Of a stretch of 64,000 nt of DNA, positions 24,794-40,062 are shown piece after piece; positions within the stretch are counted from its first letter, which is position 1; every line of letters begins with the position of its first letter. The notes below the pieces were generated by a model that saw nothing but the letters and a program-made list of their open reading frames with translations, did not search any database and had not been told where the DNA came from. This DNA comes from a virus, in IMG/VR virus record IMGVR_UViG_3300022744_000001, positions 194,022 to 258,021 of that record. One strand, written 5' to 3'. The position numbers and the translations under genes are program-made.

Positions 24794-26020
24794 ATGGCAT
24801 ATGACCTGATCTGGAAAGCAGACGAAGCCCTCCCAAAACCCCAACCCGTTGCTGTCTGTGCGCGCGAACCTCTCCCCGATCGCACACGAAAAAGCATCTT
24901 CCTCGCAGGCCCGACGCCGCGAGACCAGAACACGCCGAGCTGGCGGCCCGAAGCTCTCCGCATCTTGGACAAGCTTGGGTATGACGGCTACGTCTTCATT
25001 CCCGAGGACCGTTCAGGTACCTTCTCCGGCGACTACACGGCACAGGTGGAGTGGGAGACGGCCGCGCTGAACGTGGCCGACATCATCGTCTTCTGGGTAC
25101 CTCGCGACATGAAGACCATGCCTGCCTTGACCACGAATGTCGAGTTCGGCATCTGGATGGATTCCGGCAAAGTCGTTTTGGGGGCGCCGGATTCAGCCGT
25201 GAAAAACACCTACCTCAAGTGGTGGGCGAGCAACCTGAAGGTACCTTTCTCCAACAGTCTCGAGACCACGCTGCAAGCGGCCATCGACGCCATTGGAGAC
25301 GGGGCTTCCCGCTGGGGTGGCGAAGCGCAAGTGCCGCTCCACATCTGGAAGCACCCGACCTTCCAAGGCTGGCTGCGAGCCCAGAAGGGGGCGGGCAACC
25401 GCCTCGATGGGGCCAAGGTCCTCTGGAGCTTCCGCGTAGGTCCAGAGCGCAAGAAGACGTTCGCTTGGGCCCTCCACGTGAACGTCTACGTGGCCTCCGA
25501 GGATCGAAACAAGACCAACGAGTTCGTGTTCGGTCGAGTCGATATCGCCTCTGTGGTCCTCTACCACCGAGACGACACGCACATGGACAAGGAGACCGAC
25601 GTGGACGTCATCCTGGTGCGTGAGTTCCGCTCCCCCGCACGTACGTCAGACGGGTTCATCGTCGAGCTGCCTGCGGGCAGCATCGAGAAGCTCGACCCCA
25701 AATCGGCCGCGCTGAAGGAGCTGGAGGAGGAGACCGGGGTCAAACTCGACCCGAACCGCCTTCGCCTGGTAGGTACCAAACAGGTGGCGGGTACCCTCTC
25801 TGCTCACACTTCGGTCGTTTACGCCGCCGCGATCGAATATGAGGAGTACGAAGAAATTCTCCGAACCATGGGAAAAGTCCGAGGGGTCGCTGAGGATACC
25901 GAGCGCACCACAATCACGGTAGACCGCCTCGACCATCTGCTCAGCGGAGCGAATGGTACCGAGGTAGATTGGGCGACCTTGGGGATGATCAGTGCCGCAG
26001 TTCTGACCCACAGTGATTGA
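24794..26020 (+). CDS. nucleoside 2-deoxyribosyltransferase-like domain fused to Nudix hydrolase
   Basis: The N-terminal half reads IFLAGP...TNVEFGIW, matching the NDT/SLOG fold. The C-terminal half carries the Nudix box ELPAGSIEKLDPKSAALKELEEETGV. Confidence 0.65.
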   Translation: MAYDLIWKADEALPKPQPVAVCAREPLPDRTRKSIFLAGPTPRDQNTPSWRPEALRILDKLGYDGYVFIPEDRSGTFSGDYTAQVEWETAALNVADIIVFWVPRDMKTMPALTTNVEFGIWMDSGKVVLGAPDSAVKNTYLKWWASNLKVPFSNSLETTLQAAIDAIGDGASRWGGEAQVPLHIWKHPTFQGWLRAQKGAGNRLDGAKVLWSFRVGPERKKTFAWALHVNVYVASEDRNKTNEFVFGRVDIASVVLYHRDDTHMDKETDVDVILVREFRSPARTSDGFIVELPAGSIEKLDPKSAALKELEEETGVKLDPNRLRLVGTKQVAGTLSAHTSVVYAAAIEYEEYEEILRTMGKVRGVAEDTERTTITVDRLDHLLSGANGTEVDWATLGMISAAVLTHSD

Positions 26021-26041: not shown

Positions 26042-26905
26042 ATGAACGTCTATGGAATCTCAGGGCTGAAGGGTCACGGGAAAGACTCTCTTGCAAAAGC
26101 CATTCAAGGCGAGAGCGGGGACTTTCGTATCACTCACTTCGCGTTCGAGTTGAAGCGCCTCGGTGGGGTCATTTTCGGCCTCACCGATGCTCAGATGCAC
26201 GATCAGCTGTTGAAGGAGTTACCTCTCCCTGAGCCCGTCCACATGGACGAGTTTCTCCCGGCGATGCGCGAGCAGACGGGGCTGGACATTCAACCCGCGG
26301 AGAAGGTTGCCAACACCCCTCGAGAGGTTTTGCAGTACCTGGGTACCGAGTACGTTCGTCGAGCCAGACAGTCTTACTGGGTCGATTGCGTGCTCAAGGA
26401 AATCATGGACGTGGGGGACTTCTTCCTCGTCCCTGACACTCGGTACCCGAACGAGGCCGACGCGCTCCGGTCCATCGGAGGCAAGGTCATCAAGGTCAAG
26501 CGCATCGACATCCCTGAGCACACGGACGGGCACTCGAGCGAGACCGAGATGGCGAAGATCGACCCGGACCTGCTCCTGGGCACGGTTACCGGCGGGTTCG
26601 GGCTCCAATCCAAAGTGGCCGCGTTGATTGCTCGGGGCCAGTTCGAGGAGGCCAAGAAGTACGACTACCGCCGAATCGAACGAGCTTTGGCGGAGTTCAG
26701 GGCCGGTGGCACAACCCGGGACGTGGCCCATACGCTCGAGCTGCACCTGGTGGACGCAGAATTCGTTCTCGATTACTACAAAATCAACTGCAAACGGTGT
26801 CTTGGGTATCGACGGTTCATTGACGGCGAGCTAGACCGAGGCCAAGTTGGCTTCGAAATCATGTCCTGTCAGGACTGCAAGGTGATTGACCCACGGCTTT
26901 CATGA
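26042..26905 (+). CDS. deoxynucleoside monophosphate kinase (T4 gp1-like) with C-terminal zinc ribbon
   Basis: ISGLKGHGKDSLAKAI matches the T4 dNMP kinase LSGVKRSGKDTTADFI. C-terminal CKRC...CQDC. Confidence 0.6.
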   Translation: MNVYGISGLKGHGKDSLAKAIQGESGDFRITHFAFELKRLGGVIFGLTDAQMHDQLLKELPLPEPVHMDEFLPAMREQTGLDIQPAEKVANTPREVLQYLGTEYVRRARQSYWVDCVLKEIMDVGDFFLVPDTRYPNEADALRSIGGKVIKVKRIDIPEHTDGHSSETEMAKIDPDLLLGTVTGGFGLQSKVAALIARGQFEEAKKYDYRRIERALAEFRAGGTTRDVAHTLELHLVDAEFVLDYYKINCKRCLGYRRFIDGELDRGQVGFEIMSCQDCKVIDPRLS

Positions 26906-28128: not shown

Positions 28129-28549
28129 CGCGACTGGTGAGGCGGTTGATCTCGTAATCCAAGTTGGCGTCGATACGGTCGATGGCGTTCTGCCTGTTCT
28201 GGCTCATCATGATGATCGGCGCGGTGTACGCGGCCTGCAAGCTCATGACGAGGTTCATGAGGATGAACGGGTAGGGGTCCCACGGGTGGGTGAGGTGGAT
28301 GTTCGCCGCGACCCAGCTCACGACGATGACCGTCTGAACGAGAATGAACGACCATGAGCCGACCGTTCTCGCGACTCGGTCGGCTGCGATGTCCTTGAGG
28401 GTTACTGGGCGCCGGATTTCGTCGATTACGGACGGTTTTTGATTCACGGTCGCCCTCCCCCAACTACATGATTCTCGCAATCTCGAAATGCATCCCGTCG
28501 AGACGCCCTCGATAGTGCCCACCCCAAAAGAAGCCCAGCTGGTTTGCAA
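27944..28549 (-). CDS. DUF1003 family membrane protein
   Basis: PFILMNLVMSLQAAYTAPIIMMSQNRQ is typical of DUF1003. The true start is probably an internal GTG near 28447, which removes the overlap with the endolysin. Confidence 0.55.
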   Translation of the reverse strand: MQTSWASFGVGTIEGVSTGCISRLRESCSWGRATVNQKPSVIDEIRRPVTLKDIAADRVARTVGSWSFILVQTVIVVSWVAANIHLTHPWDPYPFILMNLVMSLQAAYTAPIIMMSQNRQNAIDRIDANLDYEINRLTSRGVQQILERLDEHARELAEIRRLVAENPGYASGVGNPTRGDTLRCVPPPSGEDGLGEGSLEA

Positions 28550-29246
28550 TCGGGACCAGCTTGCGCACTGACCCCGTAGCCCCTACCAACGGGGGCTCAG
28601 CTCCGATGGGGTTCCATTTGGCGTTCAGGTCGAAAGCACTACCGTGGCTGTGGGCGGAGAGGGTCGTTGTGCTGCCCCGGACGAACCGAGCCGCGTAGGT
28701 GCCGTCAAAAGACAGGATGAGGTCGAGGAGCTTGGCCCTCTCCCATTCCCGGAAGAGCAGCTGGAGACGTGGCGCGGCCCGCTTGTGGAACCTGACCTTG
28801 CAGTTGACAGGAGCCCCTTTGATGCCACGAAGCTGGGGGATCTCGATTTCGACCAGGTTCTGGTGCACCCAGTCATCGAGGATCTCGATGCGCTCCATGT
28901 TGCCATCAATGGGCGCGGGTTTGAACTTGAACCGGCCGAACAGCTGCTCCCGCATCGCTTGCGTCGGGGAGATCAGGTCCGAACGAGGCGGCCAGCCTGG
29001 TCCAAACTCAGCATCATCTCGAACGTCGAGGTATCCTCGCTCGATGGCTTTGGCGTAGGTCAAGCGACCCACTTCCCCATCGGGCGGATGAAGCCCTACA
29101 GCGTTTTGAAACGCCTCCGTGGCCGCTTTGGTCTTTGGGCCAAAGCTACCCTCAACGAGAGACCCGGAGTAGAAACCCTGGCCGAGCAAGAAGTTCTGCC
29201 AGCGTTGAACGTCCGGGCCGATGGAACCGAACCGCAGGACTTGCAT
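28464..29246 (-). CDS. endolysin: peptidoglycan-binding domain + peptidase M15 (L-Ala-D-Glu/VanY-like)
   Basis: N-terminal GPDVQRWQNFLLGQGFY...GPKTKAATEAFQ is PG_binding_1. C-terminal SAHSHGSAFDLN...GMHFE carries the M15 zinc ligands. Confidence 0.8.
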   Translation of the reverse strand: MQVLRFGSIGPDVQRWQNFLLGQGFYSGSLVEGSFGPKTKAATEAFQNAVGLHPPDGEVGRLTYAKAIERGYLDVRDDAEFGPGWPPRSDLISPTQAMREQLFGRFKFKPAPIDGNMERIEILDDWVHQNLVEIEIPQLRGIKGAPVNCKVRFHKRAAPRLQLLFREWERAKLLDLILSFDGTYAARFVRGSTTTLSAHSHGSAFDLNAKWNPIGAEPPLVGATGSVRKLVPIANQLGFFWGGHYRGRLDGMHFEIARIM

Positions 29247-30132: not shown

Positions 30133-30173
30133 GACCATGGTCATCGTGACCATGGTTATCGGAACCATGGTCC
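30133..30173 (+). promoter_or_regulatory. three tandem 15-bp units each containing the palindrome (G)ACCATGGT(C); candidate operator array
   Basis: ACCATGGT occurs at 30134, 30149 and 30164 with exact 15-bp spacing, directly upstream of the NAD-operon regulator. Confidence 0.4.
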
Positions 30174-30943
30174 TCAACACCAGGGTAGTCATGTATCGTT
30201 ACAAATATCCGCGACCGTCGGTTGCTGTGGATCTCGTCACCTTTGGGTACGACGCGACCCAGGCAGAGATCAGTGTCCTACTCATCAAGCGCAAGCACGA
30301 TCCCTTCGAAGGGAAATGGGCCTTGCCTGGGGGGTTTGTCGAGGTTGGAACCGAGGACGATTTCTCGGGGTCAAAGCCTTCGAACTACGGGGAGTCGCTC
30401 GAGGACGCTGCGCGTCGTGAGCTGAAGGAGGAGACTGGGGCGGAGCCCGAGTACATCGAACAGCTCGGGACGTTCGGGGACCCCAATCGTGATCCTCGCG
30501 GGCGAGTCATCTCGGTCGCCTACCTCAGCCTCGTGCGCTCCAAGGACCTCACTGTCAAAGCCAGCTCGGATGCAGCCGAGGCGGTGTGGTGGCCTTTGAA
30601 GTCTGCCCTTCGCCAGAAGTTCGCCTTCGACCACAACACCATCCTGAATCAGGCCGTAACTCGACTTCACTCAAAGGTTCGGTACGCGCCAATCGGGTTC
30701 AACCTTCTCCCGCAGAAGTTCACCTTGCACGAGCTGCAAGAACTCTACGAGGCGCTTCTCTTGCGCCAGCTCGATAAGAGCAACTTCCGAAGGAAAGTGC
30801 TCTCCGTGGGGATTCTGGCCGAGGCCGGTCAACGCGTCCACGGGAAGCAAACCGTCCAACTCTACCGATTCGACAAGCGCGCCTACGACAAGGTCAGCGC
30901 TGCTGGCTTCAATTTCGAACCCAAGTTCGTGAAGGGGAAATGA
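30137..30943 (+). CDS. Nudix hydrolase domain + C-terminal winged-helix (NrtR-like ADP-ribose-responsive regulator)
   Basis: Nudix box GGFVEVGTEDDFSGSKPSNYGESLEDAARRELKEETG. C-terminal FTLHELQELYEALL...DKSNFRRKVL resembles the NrtR wHTH. The real start is probably the ATG at 30191. Confidence 0.6.
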   Translation: MVIVTMVIGTMVLNTRVVMYRYKYPRPSVAVDLVTFGYDATQAEISVLLIKRKHDPFEGKWALPGGFVEVGTEDDFSGSKPSNYGESLEDAARRELKEETGAEPEYIEQLGTFGDPNRDPRGRVISVAYLSLVRSKDLTVKASSDAAEAVWWPLKSALRQKFAFDHNTILNQAVTRLHSKVRYAPIGFNLLPQKFTLHELQELYEALLLRQLDKSNFRRKVLSVGILAEAGQRVHGKQTVQLYRFDKRAYDKVSAAGFNFEPKFVKGK

Positions 30944-32355
30944 TCATGCTTCGACCCAACCTCGCACTCAACACCGACTCCTACAAGCTCTCGCACCCGT
31001 GGCAATACCCTGACGGGCTCGAGTACATGCAGTCCTATTTCGAAAGCCGTGGTGGCCTCTTCGGAAAGACCATGAGCCTTGGCTACCAGGGGTTGGCCAA
31101 GACCAACCTGCTCGACCCGGTCACCAAGGACGACGTGGAGGAAGCCAAGGAGGTCGCGGAGGCCCATGGCGAACCTTTCGAGTACGGCGGCTGGATGCGC
31201 ATTGTGGACAAGTTCGAGGGCAAGCCCCCCATCCGCATCTTGGCCGTGCCCGAAGGTACTATGGTCCCGACGCACAACTTGCTGATGCGGGTGGAGTCCA
31301 TGGACAAGGAAACGGCGTGGCTCCCCGGGCACGTCGAGTCCATGTTGGTCCGCCTTTGGTACCCGCAGACGGTCGCGACTCTCTCGCACTACATCAAGCG
31401 GGACATTCTCGAGGCCCTGATCAAGTCGTCCAACGACCCCTGGGGGGAGATCCTCTTCAAGCTGCATGACTTCGGGGCTCGAGGGTGCAGCTCGCTCGAG
31501 ACGGCGGGTATCGGCGGTATGGCGCACCTGGTCAATTTCCAGGGCACCGACACCATCGAGGCTCTTCGCTACGTCCGGAAATACTACGGCGAGTCGATGG
31601 CGGGGTTCTCCATCCCCGCGGCGGAGCACTCGACCATCACGAGCTGGGGCCGGGAGAACGAACTCCTCGCCTACCGGAACATGGTCAAGCAGTTCGCGAA
31701 GCCCGGCAAGTTCGTGGCGTGTGTCTCGGACAGCTACGACATCTACAACGCGGTTCGTCTCTGGGGCAGTGAACTCCGCGAAGAGGTCAAGGCCAGCGGC
31801 GGCACCCTGGTCATTCGTCCTGACTCCGGCATCCCCGTCGAGGTGGTCATGAAGTGCCTCCGCATCCTGGAAGACCAGGTGGGCATGACCAAGAACATGA
31901 AGGGGTACAAGGTCCTCCCGTCCTACTTCCGCCTGATCCAGGGTGACGGGGTCAACCGCGACTCCATCCGCGAAATCCTCGCCGAGATGCTCGCGAACGG
32001 CTACTCGGCGAGCAACATCGCCTTCGGCATGGGTGGCGGCCTCCTGCAACAGGTCAACCGCGACACCCAGAAGTACGCCTACAAGTGCTCGCAGGTCATC
32101 ATCAACGGGCAGCCCCGTCGCGTCTTCAAAGACCCGGTCACGGACCAGGGCAAGAAGTCGAAGGCAGGCAACTTGGACATCGTGTTCGAGAACGGGCAGT
32201 TCAAGACCATCGAACTCGAGCCCGGCACCTCTCTCAGCCGCAACACGGCACTCAAGCCCATCTACGAAATGGGCAAACTCTTGGTAGATGAAAAGTTCTC
32301 CGACGTGCGGAAGCGTGCTGACAGCGACCTCGTCGAAGGCTACGGAAGGGCATGA
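30940..32355 (+). CDS. nadV: nicotinamide phosphoribosyltransferase (NadV/Nampt)
   Basis: LALNTDSYKLSHPWQYPDG...YFESRGG matches the NAMPT N-terminus. 471 aa, ATGA-coupled to its neighbours. Confidence 0.85.
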   Translation: MIMLRPNLALNTDSYKLSHPWQYPDGLEYMQSYFESRGGLFGKTMSLGYQGLAKTNLLDPVTKDDVEEAKEVAEAHGEPFEYGGWMRIVDKFEGKPPIRILAVPEGTMVPTHNLLMRVESMDKETAWLPGHVESMLVRLWYPQTVATLSHYIKRDILEALIKSSNDPWGEILFKLHDFGARGCSSLETAGIGGMAHLVNFQGTDTIEALRYVRKYYGESMAGFSIPAAEHSTITSWGRENELLAYRNMVKQFAKPGKFVACVSDSYDIYNAVRLWGSELREEVKASGGTLVIRPDSGIPVEVVMKCLRILEDQVGMTKNMKGYKVLPSYFRLIQGDGVNRDSIREILAEMLANGYSASNIAFGMGGGLLQQVNRDTQKYAYKCSQVIINGQPRRVFKDPVTDQGKKSKAGNLDIVFENGQFKTIELEPGTSLSRNTALKPIYEMGKLLVDEKFSDVRKRADSDLVEGYGRA

Positions 32356-33449
32356 CCATGATCACGAATCAACCAGCTGCTGTTTTGCTCAACCACGCGC
32401 CGTTGCGGGTTGCCATCGCGGCTTCGGGGGCCGGAGCAGGACTCCAGAAAACCCTCTGGGACGTTCCCGGCATCTCCGCGGTCTTGGTCGAGGCTTCCTT
32501 CCCCTATGCGATGGAGGCGACTGACCAGTTCCTGCGGTTCAAGCCTGACCGGTATTGCTCGGCTTGCACTGCCGTCGAGATGGCCATGGAGTGCTACTAC
32601 CGGGCATTCCAGTACAACGGCCCCCGGGCCATCGGGGTTGGGCTCAGTGCCTCGGTGGCATCCCTAAAAGCCCACCGGGGCGAGCACCGGGTCTTTGCGG
32701 CGTCCTTCTCGGACAAGGGGTGCCGGGTCTACGAACGAGTGCTGGAGAAGACCAACGAACCGGCAACCCTCGCTCGTGTGCTTGACGGGGCGGTGGCCGA
32801 CGCCATGGGCCTTCTGGCGCTCCTGGAGGCCGTAGGAGCGGCGATGGACAACGCCCCCGAGGCAACCGACTATGACGGGGCGGCCCTCGCTCACGAGGCG
32901 TTCTGGGCCCGTCCTGTGTTCACCAAGACCGGGCAGCGGGTGACCGAGGCTGAGGCCGAGGTGGAAGCGATCTTCCCCGGGGCCTTCAACCCGCCCCATC
33001 ACGGGCACTTTGGGATGGCCCACAACTTCCAAGGGTATACTCGGATCAGCCCCACCTTTCATGTCACGGCGGAGACGCCCCACAAGCCCCCGCTTTCCGT
33101 GGCAGAGATGCTGCAACGAGCCAAGATGCTTGAGGGGCACCACCGGATGTTCACCCGGAACGACCCCCTGTACGTGGACAAGGCGGCCAAGTTCCCCGGG
33201 CGTCCGATCCTCGTCGGGTCGGATGCGCTCGAGCGCCTGCTCGACCCCAAGTGGGGGCCAACCCCAGAAGAGCTGGGCTCCACATTCGAGGAGCATGGGA
33301 CGGTTTTCTACGTCCCTGAAACCCGGGTCGTGAACGGCCGCGAAGTGAAGCTCGAGGACCTGACCCTACCCAAAGGCTTGAGGGTGATTCGACTCCCTGG
33401 CCGTTGGGATGTCAGCTCCTCCGAGCTTCGCGCTACTTCCGCCGCTTAG
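32352..33449 (+). CDS. CinA-C/PncC-like domain fused to nicotinamide/nicotinate mononucleotide adenylyltransferase (NMNAT)
   Basis: The C-terminal GAFNPPHHGH...VSSSELRA matches NadD motifs. The N-terminal LWDVPGISAVLVEASFPYAME...ACTAVEMAMEC...GVGLSASVAS aligns with the CinA C-terminal (NMN deamidase) fold, but the ESCTGG motif is replaced by ASGAGAG. Confidence 0.65.
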   Translation: MTMITNQPAAVLLNHAPLRVAIAASGAGAGLQKTLWDVPGISAVLVEASFPYAMEATDQFLRFKPDRYCSACTAVEMAMECYYRAFQYNGPRAIGVGLSASVASLKAHRGEHRVFAASFSDKGCRVYERVLEKTNEPATLARVLDGAVADAMGLLALLEAVGAAMDNAPEATDYDGAALAHEAFWARPVFTKTGQRVTEAEAEVEAIFPGAFNPPHHGHFGMAHNFQGYTRISPTFHVTAETPHKPPLSVAEMLQRAKMLEGHHRMFTRNDPLYVDKAAKFPGRPILVGSDALERLLDPKWGPTPEELGSTFEEHGTVFYVPETRVVNGREVKLEDLTLPKGLRVIRLPGRWDVSSSELRATSAA

Positions 33450-33807: not shown

Positions 33808-34353
33808 TCAGGAACGAGTCGCGGGCTCCTCATAGAAGATGTTTCGCGTTAGCCCACAGTTGACCGGCTGTAGCTTTACCTTGGGTCGGTCCATGGCGCC
33901 GCCCCAGTGCTTTGCGCGCGGACAAGGATCAGGAATATCCCCTGCGGCCCATCGTTCAACCAGTTCACGTACCGCAGCCCAGTGCTTTGCGAAGGGCTTG
34001 TAGGCGTCGCTGGTGGGGTCCCCCCAAGGCAGCGTTTGAATGAACTGGGTACGCTCGGTTTTCGTCTTCAATGGGCTCGCGTATTTCGCGACCAACTCAG
34101 AAAATGTCGTCTTGCCAGGCTTCCTCGTCTCTATCGAGTTGAATCGCTTGGCCAACACCCAAGCGATCGCTCTGTGGTCAGGTTCATGCCAATCAGCTTC
34201 GCCCACCATGGCTCGGGCAAGCGTCAGCTTGGCTTCGTCATCGAGCTGTTCAGCTGGTAGCGGTACGTGCCTCTTTCGTTCCGCATGCGCCGGAGCAACG
34301 CGGAAACAAGGAACGAAGAAAAGCACGGCTAGAATTACAAAAAACTGTCGCAT
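33808..34353 (-). CDS. SleB-like cell wall hydrolase with signal peptide
   Basis: N-terminal signal peptide MRQFFVILAVLFFVPCFRVAPAHA. LTLARAMVGEADWHEPDHRAIAWVLAKR matches the Hydrolase_2/SleB motif. Confidence 0.6.
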   Translation of the reverse strand: MRQFFVILAVLFFVPCFRVAPAHAERKRHVPLPAEQLDDEAKLTLARAMVGEADWHEPDHRAIAWVLAKRFNSIETRKPGKTTFSELVAKYASPLKTKTERTQFIQTLPWGDPTSDAYKPFAKHWAAVRELVERWAAGDIPDPCPRAKHWGGAMDRPKVKLQPVNCGLTRNIFYEEPATRS

Positions 34354-36110: not shown

Positions 36111-36744
36111 GGCCGGTGGGAGGGGCACTCGAACCCGGGCCTTGGTCCTGGCCGGGAATGCGCCGAATGCCCATGATCATCATCCTCCCCGCTGCCTCGT
36201 GCTGGGAGTGGCTGTCCACCTGCAAAACGACATTGACCACGGTGCGACCCAGCCGCATCCAGGCTTGCTCGAGCGCCTTAACCCCCTCGTTGACGTCGTG
36301 GACCAATGAGTGCATCTCCTCGGAGATTTCGCAGTTCGAATCGTGCAGCAGCTCCACAAACAAGGACGCGATATCGATCAACAGGTCGTGTCGCTCCTCG
36401 GGGGAAGCCCCGCTGAACTTGCGCACGCTTTCGAGCAGGTCCGGGGACGTGAACAGGTCGTCCTTGTGGATGCGCCCACAAGCCCCGCATACCTCACTGG
36501 GAGGGGCCCCTTTACTCCGCCAGATGCTGGCCGCAGATGTCACCACCTCCGAAACGGTCTCCTCCCCACGACGGGAGACAACCACTGTGACGACGGGGGC
36601 CCAACCAGTTTTGGACTGCGCGAGCTTGATGTCCTTGATCGTGCCCTCAATCCGCAATCCGCCCGCATCTGTTTCTACTTCTGCCCCAATCGCGAGATCT
36701 TGTTCTGCCATGTTTTCTCCGTGACAATCGTACACCGGAATCAA
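36103..36744 (-). CDS. hypothetical protein
   Basis: 213 aa. Confidence 0.4.
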   Translation of the reverse strand: MIPVYDCHGENMAEQDLAIGAEVETDAGGLRIEGTIKDIKLAQSKTGWAPVVTVVVSRRGEETVSEVVTSAASIWRSKGAPPSEVCGACGRIHKDDLFTSPDLLESVRKFSGASPEERHDLLIDIASLFVELLHDSNCEISEEMHSLVHDVNEGVKALEQAWMRLGRTVVNVVLQVDSHSQHEAAGRMMIMGIRRIPGQDQGPGSSAPPTGLN

Positions 36745-37445
36745 CGGCGTCTCGTTTTCTTGCGCTTCGACGTTTCCGCTTCCCTTGCGGCCGTGACCAG
36801 ACGAGCTTGGTCTTGACGAGCTTGGTCTTGCTCTTCCGCCTCTTTGGCCGCGACGATGGCGGCCCGGTTCATGTGAGCGCGGTCCATCGCCTCGTCGCCC
36901 GTGATTCGCTCATAGGGGACCTTGTTGTCCCGAAGAGCCCGGACACGTTCGATCTCGTCCTCCGAATGAACCGTTCCGCCCGCGTTCAAGTCGATGTACC
37001 AGGAGTACACGTCGTTGATCGTCTTGAGTTCGTTCACGTGCCACCGGAAGCGGCACTGCATGATGTCGAACCCGTCCGTGTACTCCCGATGGTAGTGGCC
37101 GAACGCTTTGATCTCGTTGCTCAGGTAGCCAATGACTGCATCAATACGCTGCTTGCCGTCCACGAGCACGTACCAGCACTTTGGGTCGTTTTTGTCCACG
37201 AACCCCTGCCACGTGGGGCAGTTCGTGTAGATGTCCTTGCCCGACTTGCCGCCGCTCAGGATGTACTCGACGAACCGAGTTTTCTGCGCCTCTGTCCAGA
37301 CGTTCCCTCGCTGGAAGTTGGGGTTGACGTCCAGGCCGTAGTCCATCACCTGGCTGTAGTAGTATTTCGCAAGGTAGTTCCACCCCACGTCAACGGCGTA
37401 CAGCCCGGCACTGGGGGTCATCTGGGGGATATCACGATAGCGCAT
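36741..37445 (-). CDS. DUF262 (ParB-like nuclease domain, DGQQR motif) protein
   Basis: NFQRGNVWTEAQKTRFVEYIL...LVDGKQRIDAV. A 15-bp tandem repeat (QDQAR x2) sits in the C-terminal coding region. Confidence 0.6.
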   Translation of the reverse strand: MRYRDIPQMTPSAGLYAVDVGWNYLAKYYYSQVMDYGLDVNPNFQRGNVWTEAQKTRFVEYILSGGKSGKDIYTNCPTWQGFVDKNDPKCWYVLVDGKQRIDAVIGYLSNEIKAFGHYHREYTDGFDIMQCRFRWHVNELKTINDVYSWYIDLNAGGTVHSEDEIERVRALRDNKVPYERITGDEAMDRAHMNRAAIVAAKEAEEQDQARQDQARLVTAAREAETSKRKKTRRR

Positions 37446-37484: not shown

Positions 37485-37985
37485 CTATACCGCTTTGAAG
37501 CTCTGCGCCTTCTTTTGAAGGGCTTCGGCCACAATCGGGTGGACATAATAGCTCACGTCCGCGCCCCAGCTCGCCAGCTCTTTGACGTTCGTGGAACTCA
37601 CGAACGACTGTTCCGGTTGGGTCATCAGGAAGATCGTGTCGATGCTCGGGCAAAGCTGGCGGTTCACATGCGCGATCCCCATCTCAGCCTCAAAGTCGGC
37701 GATGGCGCGCAGCCCACGAATGATGGTTTTGGCCCCTACCTGCTTGCAGAAGTCCACAAGAAGGCCGCGGAAAGGCATCACCGTGACCTTGGGGATTTTC
37801 TCGGCCACAAAAACCTGGGTGATGAGTCGAACGCGCTCCTCTTCGTCGAAGAACGGCTTTTTCTTGGAATTCATCAGAACCCCGATCACCAACTCGTCCG
37901 CGATCTCAAGACCTCGCGTAGCGATGTTGAAGTGTCCGTTGGTGAACGGGTCGAAACTGCCTGCGTAAGCCGCGATCTTCGTCAT
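37485..37985 (-). CDS. coaD: phosphopantetheine adenylyltransferase (CoaD/PPAT)
   Basis: AYAGSFDPFTNGHFNI, IRGLRAIADFEAEMGIAHVNR and IFLMTQPEQSFVSSTNVKE align closely with E. coli CoaD along its whole length. Confidence 0.85.
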   Translation of the reverse strand: MTKIAAYAGSFDPFTNGHFNIATRGLEIADELVIGVLMNSKKKPFFDEEERVRLITQVFVAEKIPKVTVMPFRGLLVDFCKQVGAKTIIRGLRAIADFEAEMGIAHVNRQLCPSIDTIFLMTQPEQSFVSSTNVKELASWGADVSYYVHPIVAEALQKKAQSFKAV

Positions 37986-39504: not shown

Positions 39505-40062
39505 ATGAGCTTCATTGGCATCAAAGTGCCTCACGAGGTCGGTCGTTTGCTTCACACCATAGAGGTACCGGGCGAAAAGGTACCTCTCCACGAGTTCCAC
39601 GTGACCCTCCTCTACCTGGGCAAAGAAGTGCCCATTGAAACCTTGGGCAAGGCCATCGTGGCCGCGGCCGAAGTCGCGGAGTCGTACCGCCCCTTCCGTT
39701 GCACGCTCACGCAAACCAGCTCTTTCCCCAAAGGCGATGACGGGGTACCCATCATCTGTCCTGTGGACAGCCCCGAACTCCACGAACTCAATACGCAGCT
39801 CAAAGCAGCTTTTGACGCGGCGGGAGTGGACTACTCGAAAAAGTTCCCCGACTACAAACCGCACGTGACGTTGGCCTACTCCGACGAGGTCACAGCGGAC
39901 ACGCTGTTCGGACCACTCGAGTGGTCCGCCTACGAGATGGTGCTCTGGGGCGGGGACGCGGGGGATGAGCGTCTTGCCACCAACTTCCCATTTGCCTTGC
40001 CCACGACGGTAGCCACGAACCAGCAGCTCGTACGCCTCGCCATGGCGATGAAGAAGAGCTAG
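39505..40062 (+). CDS. 2H phosphoesterase superfamily protein (LigT-like)
   Basis: Two H-x-T-x motifs are present: FHVTLLYLG and PHVTLAYS. 185 aa. Confidence 0.65.
   Translation: MSFIGIKVPHEVGRLLHTIEVPGEKVPLHEFHVTLLYLGKEVPIETLGKAIVAAAEVAESYRPFRCTLTQTSSFPKGDDGVPIICPVDSPELHELNTQLKAAFDAAGVDYSKKFPDYKPHVTLAYSDEVTADTLFGPLEWSAYEMVLWGGDAGDERLATNFPFALPTTVATNQQLVRLAMAMKKS

Follow-up and report, generated by a model that had tools for sequence, protein, structure and literature searches.

A CinA/PncC-fold domain joined to a NadD/NMNAT-type adenylyltransferase in an nrtR–NAMPT operon of bacteria and large phages

The stretch of viral DNA analysed here, 64,000 nucleotides long (positions 194,022 to 258,021 of IMG/VR record IMGVR_UViG_3300022744_000001; hereafter the window, numbered from its first letter), encodes at 32352..33449 on the + strand a 365-residue, two-domain protein that we call X. 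Its C-terminal domain is a NadD/NMNAT-type adenylyltransferase, and its N-terminal domain has the fold of the CinA C-terminal domain, known from the nicotinamide mononucleotide (NMN) deamidase PncC. X is the last gene of an operon that also encodes an NrtR-like regulator and NAMPT (NadV), a nicotinamide phosphoribosyltransferase. We consider it probable that X is the adenylyltransferase of an NAD+ reconstitution pathway like NARP2, and that its N domain binds a mononucleotide without being a canonical deamidase. NARP2, which pairs Nampt with Nmnat, counters NAD+-depleting defences (bioRxiv 10.1101/2024.02.11.579819).

The X open reading frame (ORF) runs from ATG to stop. In the tetranucleotide ATGA (32352–32355), its first codon overlaps the stop codon of NAMPT, the gene upstream. 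The parts of X are as follows.

32352..32846, + strand: N-terminal CinA/PncC-fold domain, about residues 1–165
32421..32441, + strand: A24-S25-G26-A27-G28-A29-G30, equivalent of PncC block P-I (AESCTGG)
32502..32522, + strand: P51-Y52-A-M-E-A-T57, equivalent of PncC block P-III (YxNxxK), with the Tyr kept and the catalytic Lys lost
32673..32690, + strand: H108-R109-G110-E111-H112-R113, the family-specific invariant motif HRG[DE]HR, in the loop/strand matching PncC block P-VII
32847..32963, + strand: linker and N-terminal extension of the transferase domain, residues 166–204, poorly conserved
32964..33449, + strand: C-terminal NadD/NMNAT-type nucleotidyltransferase domain, residues 205–365 plus stop
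32994..33008, + strand: P215-H216-H217-G218-H219, (T/H)xGH ATP-binding motif
33414..33431, + strand: S355-S356-S357-E-L-R360, SxxxxR (ISSTxxR) motif

Family models touch both domains of X, each just short of its threshold. Pfam CinA (PF02464) matches residues 12–78 with its positions 11–82 (E 2.9e-4; 20.9 bits, below the gathering threshold of 23.5), and CTP_transf_like (PF01467) matches residues 207–262 (E 5e-4; 20.7 bits, cut-off 21). The NadD and CinA matches in NCBIfam are weak, the NadD equivalog scores all being far under their cut-offs, and a PHROGs search of X gave no match. Among the relatives of X, the CinA score does pass the cut-off in P0123 (29.9 bits) and in P0244 (27.4 bits, profile positions 7–153 of 155). 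The latter, a metagenomic protein of 523 residues, unites three domains, Nudix, CinA-like and nucleotidyltransferase, and so parallels the known NadM–Nudix enzymes.

The kinship of the N domain with PncC is drawn from structural comparison, because sequence scores alone fall short. By structure, the domain has the CinA C-terminal alpha/beta fold, and PncC/CinA proteins are its best matches by far. By sequence, the N-domain profile reaches only E 0.12 against the Protein Data Bank (PDB), with 2a9s and over half the domain, and hhalign against E. coli PncC gives a probability of 8.9% over 61 columns; phmmer searches of the PDB with P0244 and P0123 returned Nudix matches or none, and no CinA match. 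A reading made earlier from the sequence alone had nonetheless proposed precisely this fusion, an NMNAT joined to a CinA-C/PncC-like domain, and the structural comparison bears it out. The strings on which it relied are all present in the X translation (ASGAGAG at 24–30, LWDVPGISAVL at 35–45, PYAMEATDQF at 51–60, ACTAVEMAMEC at 71–81 and GVGLSASVAS at 95–104), and the blocks that it named correspond to P-II, P-III, P-IV/V and P-VI of PncC. In the published scheme (PMC3855486), P-I is AESCTGG, P-II contains the phosphate-binding G/S, P-III is YxNxxK, P-VI is [ST]G[IV]AGP, P-VII is KPVGTV and P-VIII is RxxVR.

In AtCinA, the substitutions S31A, K63A, Y58A and R145A each abolish activity (PMC5384747), and the fate of these residues in X can be followed in 118 homologues, which underlie the residue counts given here. 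Blocks P-II and P-III align unambiguously by every method, with G40/S42 on G46/S48 and Y52 on Y58 (Y56 in E. coli PncC). G40, Y52 and R142 are found in 118 of 118 sequences and S42 in 117; R142 is equated with R145 by its place where the last helix begins, and not by superposition. The catalytic Lys position (K63 in AtCinA, 2A9S; K61 in E. coli PncC) is T57 in X according to every alignment method, and it holds a Lys in none of the homologues (T 76, L 16, Q 14, M 4, S 3). The register of the P-I loop depends on the aligner. In an ungapped register, which both the profile alignment to 2a9s and a MAFFT alignment to E. coli PncC give, S25 falls on the catalytic Ser (S31 in AtCinA, S29 in E. coli), while gapped registers, from hhalign and from the alignment to 6mr3, put Ala or Gly there. 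Column 25 holds T in 107 sequences, S in 10 and A in 1, so in the ungapped register a hydroxyl residue is probably kept at the catalytic-Ser position in 117 of 118. The sequence-only reading had taken the catalytic motif as replaced, on the evidence of ASGAGAG standing for ESCTGG. That view holds for the Lys, which is gone, and probably not for the Ser, which S25 (usually Thr in the family) appears to preserve. Its broader point, that the domain probably does not deamidate, agrees with an incomplete Ser/Lys machinery, in view of the absence of Lys at position 57 from all homologues and the inactivity of K63A in AtCinA (PMC5384747). With the general-base Lys missing throughout the family, a canonical NMN deamidase is most likely not what the N domain is.

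What the family has lost around the active site is accompanied by a distinct set of gains. AtCinA E30, C32 and T33 give way to a G-x-G-x-G loop with the family consensus A-T-G-A-G-A-G (G26 in 118 of 118, G28 and G30 each in 117), and N60 is also replaced. The invariants that appear in X and its relatives are Q32, W36, H108, R109, H112, R113 and K133, and the counts in the HRG[DE]HR motif and at the lysine are high (H108, H112 and R113, 111 each; R109 and K133, 110 each; G110, 118). Mean pairwise identity is 46.3% in the N domain and 45.8% in the C domain, with 36 and 28 columns, respectively, conserved at 90% or above. The N domain is thus not decaying, since it is conserved as strongly as the transferase domain. 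The linker between them (residues 166–204) has a mean pairwise identity of 26%, against 46% in both domains, with P188 and R196 nearly invariant.

The C domain matches solved NadD/NMNAT structures by fold and by profile, its best matches in both sequence and structure being NadD proteins. H216, H219, S355, S356 and R360 are invariant in all 118 sequences, and the domain carries a NadD-like PPHK motif; the NadD segment SYTxDT becomes [LFM][YF][LIV][DE]KA in the X family. A comparison with yeast Pof1 (YCL047C), for which the sequence used agrees with PMC13191266 in its length of 258 residues, H43 and R227, is treated as a lead, not as a database result. In it, hhalign of the C domain gives P 95.6 and E 1.2e-8 over 160 columns. 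X and Pof1 share FNPPHxxH, [FY][IL]DK, G.D...R..D.K[WY] and SS[ST]E[IL]R, and the pyridine-site segment [YF][LIV][DE]K together with FNPPH hints, at the level of motifs, at a resemblance to this NMN-specific enzyme. Pof1 is a single domain that lacks both the CinA-like domain and the PPHK motif, and X has both. Pof1 is an NMNAT for which NMN is the sole substrate (PMC13191266).

The fusion is found widely, in bacteria as well as in big phages. Searched against 5.8 billion proteins, X gave 153 matches, nearly all full-length, 330–420 residues long and 36–70% identical to X. Searching with the N-domain profile alone gave 2572 clusters (at 50% identity) at E<=1e-3, 1651 at E<=1e-10 and 252 at E<=1e-30, and almost all of the best 150 clusters have the two-domain architecture. 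Given so many clusters with the same architecture, the X fusion is a large, stable family and no accident of one genome. Both domains have already been noticed by automated annotation, a few relatives being labelled in IMG as 'NMN deamidase PncC' or 'NaMN adenylyltransferase/NMN deamidase PncC' (NaMN, nicotinic acid mononucleotide). Hence the idea that the architecture is an unusual one does not stand, given these cluster counts (252 or more even at E<=1e-30), operons in bacteria and existing IMG labels. No model dedicated to the family was found in Pfam, NCBIfam or PHROGs, and a literature search for the fusion found no paper describing it. On the viral side, a protein identical to X was found by protein search on a 448-kb contig, and 12 of the 19 IMG/VR loci with full-length X lie on contigs of 116–513 kb. 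A phage protein in BFVD with a TM-score of 0.89 is the only close viral structural match.

In the window, X is preceded by two genes on the same strand, and the stop of each gene overlaps the start of the next. The other elements of the operon are these.

30133..30172, no strand assigned: candidate operator of three 10-bp palindromic units, GACCATGGTC, GACCATGGTT and AACCATGGTC, at 15-bp spacing
30137..30943, + strand: NrtR-like regulator, Nudix plus NrtR winged helix (Pfam NUDIX 7.6e-21, NrtR_WHD 3.4e-19)
30940..32355, + strand: NAMPT/NadV nicotinamide phosphoribosyltransferase (NCBIfam NF006629, 585 bits, cut-off 405)

NAMPT is further supported by Pfam NAMPT_N and NAPRTase and by PHROG 448 (E 4.5e-147). 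The regulator matches the NCBIfam model of the ADP-ribose-responsive repressor NtrR with E 1.2e-50 and 172 bits, against a cut-off of 400. Because its homologues align only from about ORF residue 13–20, the true start of nrtR is probably the ATG at 30191. The three palindromic units sit within a longer imperfect palindrome just ahead of this ATG, and the listed ORF start at 30137 falls inside them. At one mismatch or fewer, the unit has 8 matches in the window where 2.5 are expected, and three of them are clustered at 30133..30172, which we regard as a candidate operator of the operon. In homologous loci, palindromes of the GTGTA-N5-TACAC type lie upstream of nrtR; in the window, three ACCATGGT-centred palindromes are found instead of the usual NrtR box.

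The linkage of X to NAMPT was compared over 26 distinct loci, each with full-length X, by looking for NAMPT within 6 kb upstream. It is there in 17 of the 26, many of them from jumbo phages. NrtR–NAMPT–X in identical order is encoded on a 2.7-Mb bacterial contig and again in a metagenome-assembled genome (MAG) of Polyangiaceae, where the genes are flanked by SIR2, ADP-ribosylglycohydrolase, a second NrtR and NADAR. Since the same operon occurs on bacterial contigs and NAMPT lies upstream in 17 of 26 loci, the fusion is no one-off. In our preferred account, the nrtR–NAMPT–X operon, which is present in bacteria, was taken up by jumbo and huge phages. Neither NadE nor a canonical PncC was found in the 64-kb window or beside any of the 26 X loci.

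Several loci deserve separate mention. In the Polyangiaceae MAG (L002/L003, 1264–3757), the second NrtR-like gene, the ADP-ribosylglycohydrolase and SIR2 lie divergently upstream of an nrtR–NAMPT–X–NADAR operon, and the surroundings form a neighbourhood of NAD-consuming and ADP-ribose-processing genes. A related clade of large phages (L024, L026, L028, L033, L039 and L040) has three genes between NAMPT and X that are absent from the window phage, encoding a protein of about 325 residues without a Pfam match, one of about 450 residues resembling adenylosuccinate synthetase (PF00709, E 6.7e-57) and a protein-kinase-like one of about 370 residues; NADAR follows downstream in L039. A scan of contigs with the short pattern GAFNPPHxGH confirmed at least 11 loci, mostly ordinary NadD genes, and supplied two more cases. 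In an uncultured Pseudomonadales MAG (L005, 4953–6017), there is a distant full-length X homologue (28% identity) with no NAMPT nearby and housekeeping neighbours (NamZ, isocitrate/isopropylmalate dehydrogenase and prolyl oligopeptidase); it retains T-G-G-G and P-Y and has RKRRGKDQ in place of HRGDHR. In an alphaproteobacterial MAG (L008), separate genes for NAMPT, a canonical PncC (33% identical to that of E. coli) and a NadE-like protein lie on one strand with NadD nearby, an unrelated locus with which the deamidase route can be compared.

How might the operon work? We propose that NAMPT would make NMN from nicotinamide and phosphoribosyl pyrophosphate (PRPP), and that the C domain of X, whose PHxGH and SSxxxR motifs are intact, would adenylylate the mononucleotide with ATP to give NAD+; the substrates and this direction of flux we infer. 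The NAD+ pool would in this way be rebuilt during infection, in the manner of NARP2, and would be needed most when NADase defences of the host free nicotinamide and ADP-ribose. The NrtR-like protein probably couples expression to ADP-ribose. Since ADP-ribose releases NrtR from DNA (PMC2330246), the operon could be inducible by this product of NADase defence. As for the N domain, it keeps the mononucleotide pocket of PncC (phosphate-binding G40/S42, Y52, the T/S99 position and R142) and is probably a binding module for NMN or another pyridine nucleotide that captures the substrate or hands it over, dimerises the enzyme or regulates it. That X may channel NMN is a reasonable suggestion.

Several observations weigh against this proposal. 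NAMPT is missing within 6 kb in nine of the 26 loci, a small Nudix gene lying directly upstream of X in five of these nine, and the usual NrtR box, GTGTA-N5-TACAC, is absent upstream of the window operon. The anti-defence role of the operon is suggested by analogy. On the side of the transferase, hhalign scores the C domain against E. coli NadD, which prefers NaMN, at P 95.0, close to the value for Pof1, and the motif-level hints on NMN or NaMN preference are divided, with [YF][LIV][DE]K as in Pof1 and PPHK as in NadD. Lastly, the N domain equals the catalytic domain in conservation and has an invariant polar cluster (T/S25, H108, H112, K133 and R142), a pattern that looks more like an active site than like a passive binding or scaffold domain.

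It is tempting, and perhaps possible, to see in the N domain no relic but a module for which the PncC pocket has taken on a new function, although we put this forward tentatively. It would be either a Lys-independent hydrolase, an amidohydrolase or other, which could use Thr/Ser25 with His108, His112 or Lys133, or a sensor of NMN, NAD or ADP-ribose that gates the transferase. If true, X would represent, in bacteria and jumbo phages, a third and previously unrecognised way of pairing an NMNAT with a partner domain, beside NadM–Nudix and NadR, and its phage version would belong to an operon that the ADP-ribose of NADase immunity switches on.

Two further alternatives stay alive because the new polar cluster is strongly conserved. 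The first, which we judge unlikely, is that X is a bifunctional NMN deamidase and NaMN adenylyltransferase. A rebuilt catalytic set, with Thr/Ser25 as nucleophile and H108, H112 or K133 as the base replacing Lys63, would yield NaMN and then nicotinic acid adenine dinucleotide (NaAD), and host NadE would finish this to NAD+, so that the NadV–PncC–NadD route would have its last two enzymes in one protein. The hydroxyl in 117 of 118 sequences (ungapped register) fits this well, as do the matches of Y52, G40/S42, T/S99 and R142 with PncC Y58, G46/S48, T105 and R145 (PMC5384747), the invariant His, His and Lys that could serve as bases, the NadD-type PPHK motif in a domain whose best sequence and structure match is NadD, selection on the N domain as strong as that on the C domain, and the separate-gene form of the route adjoining NAMPT in L008. 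However, K63A is sufficient to kill AtCinA (PMC5384747) and there is no Lys at that position in 118 sequences; E30, C32, T33 and N60 are replaced as well, and the Ser register is ambiguous, with Ala or Gly given by hhalign and the 6mr3 alignment. Moreover, NadE stands beside X in 0 of 26 loci, and the acidic residue 276 (D/E in 114 of 118), next to the pyridine-site Tyr, would be expected to disfavour a carboxylate substrate.

The second, somewhat more doubtful still, makes the N domain a different catalyst of NAD or ADP-ribose metabolism, a hydrolase, phosphatase, pyrophosphatase or kinase that acts on ADP-ribose, NAD(P), nicotinamide riboside or pyrophosphate and so feeds or pulls the reactions of NAMPT and the NMNAT domain, a part like that of the Nudix domain in NadM–Nudix or of the kinase domain in NadR. 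The near-invariant GxGxG loop (G26, G28, G30) at the junction of strand 1 and helix 1 would suit it, and the invariant cluster H108, R109, H112, R113, K133, R142, D145 and D150 is typical of a phosphate or pyrophosphate site. A domain conserved to the same degree as the catalytic one also speaks for it, as does the fact that bacterial and phage NMNATs are often joined with another pathway enzyme, as in NadM–Nudix and NadR (PMC9503650, PMC13464706). Yet there is no sequence or structure match to such enzymes, PncC/CinA being the best by far, and the gene neighbourhood implies no specific reaction; the argument is purely inferential.

The sequence-only reading had also suggested binding of an immune NAD-derived nucleotide, which would make the N domain a sponge or sensor, for instance of Thoeris glyco-cyclic ADP-ribose (gcADPR) or histidine-ADP-ribose (His-ADPR), in a dedicated anti-defence protein with an NMNAT. 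Circumstantially, it is favoured by the phage setting, by the altered residues of the nucleotide pocket and by a 2H/Acb1-like phosphoesterase some 6 kb downstream, but it finds no support and is very improbable, and we reject it as the primary function, for X is a fixture of bacterial nrtR–NAMPT–X salvage operons of a housekeeping type, on contigs of chromosome size and with NAMPT as its constant partner, and has no likeness to known sponges, no PHROG match and one close viral structural match only. A reading of the locus as NARP1 was rejected too, as no Adps/Prs-like partner is adjacent.

The window itself is phage DNA, with PHROG matches, many small unannotated ORFs, an endolysin, a dNMP (deoxynucleoside monophosphate) kinase, the 2H/Acb1-like phosphoesterase and an ORF of 793 residues whose homologues occur in 493 phage records. 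Nucleotide-metabolism cargo lies ahead of the NAD operon, namely a 408-residue protein resembling nucleoside 2-deoxyribosyltransferase with a weak Nudix domain (24794–26020, + strand), followed by the dNMP kinase (DNMK; 26042–26905, + strand); the probable endolysin, with PG_binding_1 and Peptidase_M15_4, is at 28464–29246 (− strand). Immediately downstream of X is a 181-residue protein with a hydrophobic N-terminus and no family match (33808–34353, − strand). Further downstream are a 234-residue protein with a GmrSD_N (DUF262-type) domain (36741–37445, − strand), of a gene family that also neighbours X in the related contig L040, and CoaD, phosphopantetheine adenylyltransferase (37485–37985, − strand; TIGR01510 over the full length with 179 bits, cut-off 103), which puts a gene of coenzyme A biosynthesis into the region of the NAD+ salvage operon. 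The 2H phosphoesterase (39505–40062, + strand), about 6 kb from X, matches Pfam Acb1 and 2_5_RNA_ligase2, the PHROG 'RNA ligase' (E 3.5e-12) and, under the cut-off, TIGR02258 (46.9 bits). Like Acb1, it could degrade immune signals that are cyclic nucleotides, or it could serve in RNA repair.

Depletion of NAD+ is widely used as a defence against phages, and its reversal by phage NARP1, NARP2 and NARP3 is a topic of current work. To this the X locus adds a distinct enzyme for the step from NMN to NAD+, NadD/Pof1-like and with a conserved PncC-derived domain, under a regulator of the ADP-ribose type, and one that is shared by bacterial nrtR–nadV operons and many jumbo and huge phages. Modest biochemistry on X would annotate thousands of genes, and would tell if binding, regulation or a new kind of catalysis is the task of a CinA fold that lacks the Ser/Lys dyad. 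The interest would be greater if the N domain proved to be a new catalyst or a sensor of ADP-ribose or NAD.

Finally, how does this operon compare with known systems? Compared with PncC/CinA-C proteins (AtCinA, 2A9S; E. coli PncC; TtCinA, 4CT8), the partner of the CinA-like domain in X is a nucleotidyltransferase and not a MocF/COG1058 domain. Unlike NadD and the eukaryotic-type NMNATs, X is very divergent, has the CinA-like domain at its N-terminus and lies in a nadV operon. In the published NrtR regulons, as in the window, the nadV operon begins with the gene of a regulator that has Nudix and winged-helix domains, but nadV is paired there with prs or nadM (nrtR–prs–nadV, nadM–nadV) and not with this fusion; the nrtX and nrtY of the same study are left undefined in it, and no link to X could be made (PMC2330246). 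A survey of viral NAD+ systems lists NadM and NadR as the only phage adenylyltransferases (PMC9503650). NadR, the NARP3 enzyme (NMNAT plus nicotinamide riboside kinase), resembles X in combining an adenylyltransferase with a second domain for a pyridine-nucleotide precursor. A further parallel is NARP2, as in NadV/NatV of Vibrio phage KVP40. In both, a phage NAMPT gene adjoins an adenylyltransferase gene, and the predicted net reaction is the same, from nicotinamide, PRPP and ATP to NAD+; the relatives of the X locus also carry Nudix and NADAR genes. X is not homologous to the NadM–Nudix Nmnat of KVP40, and would thus be a different enzyme for the same step.

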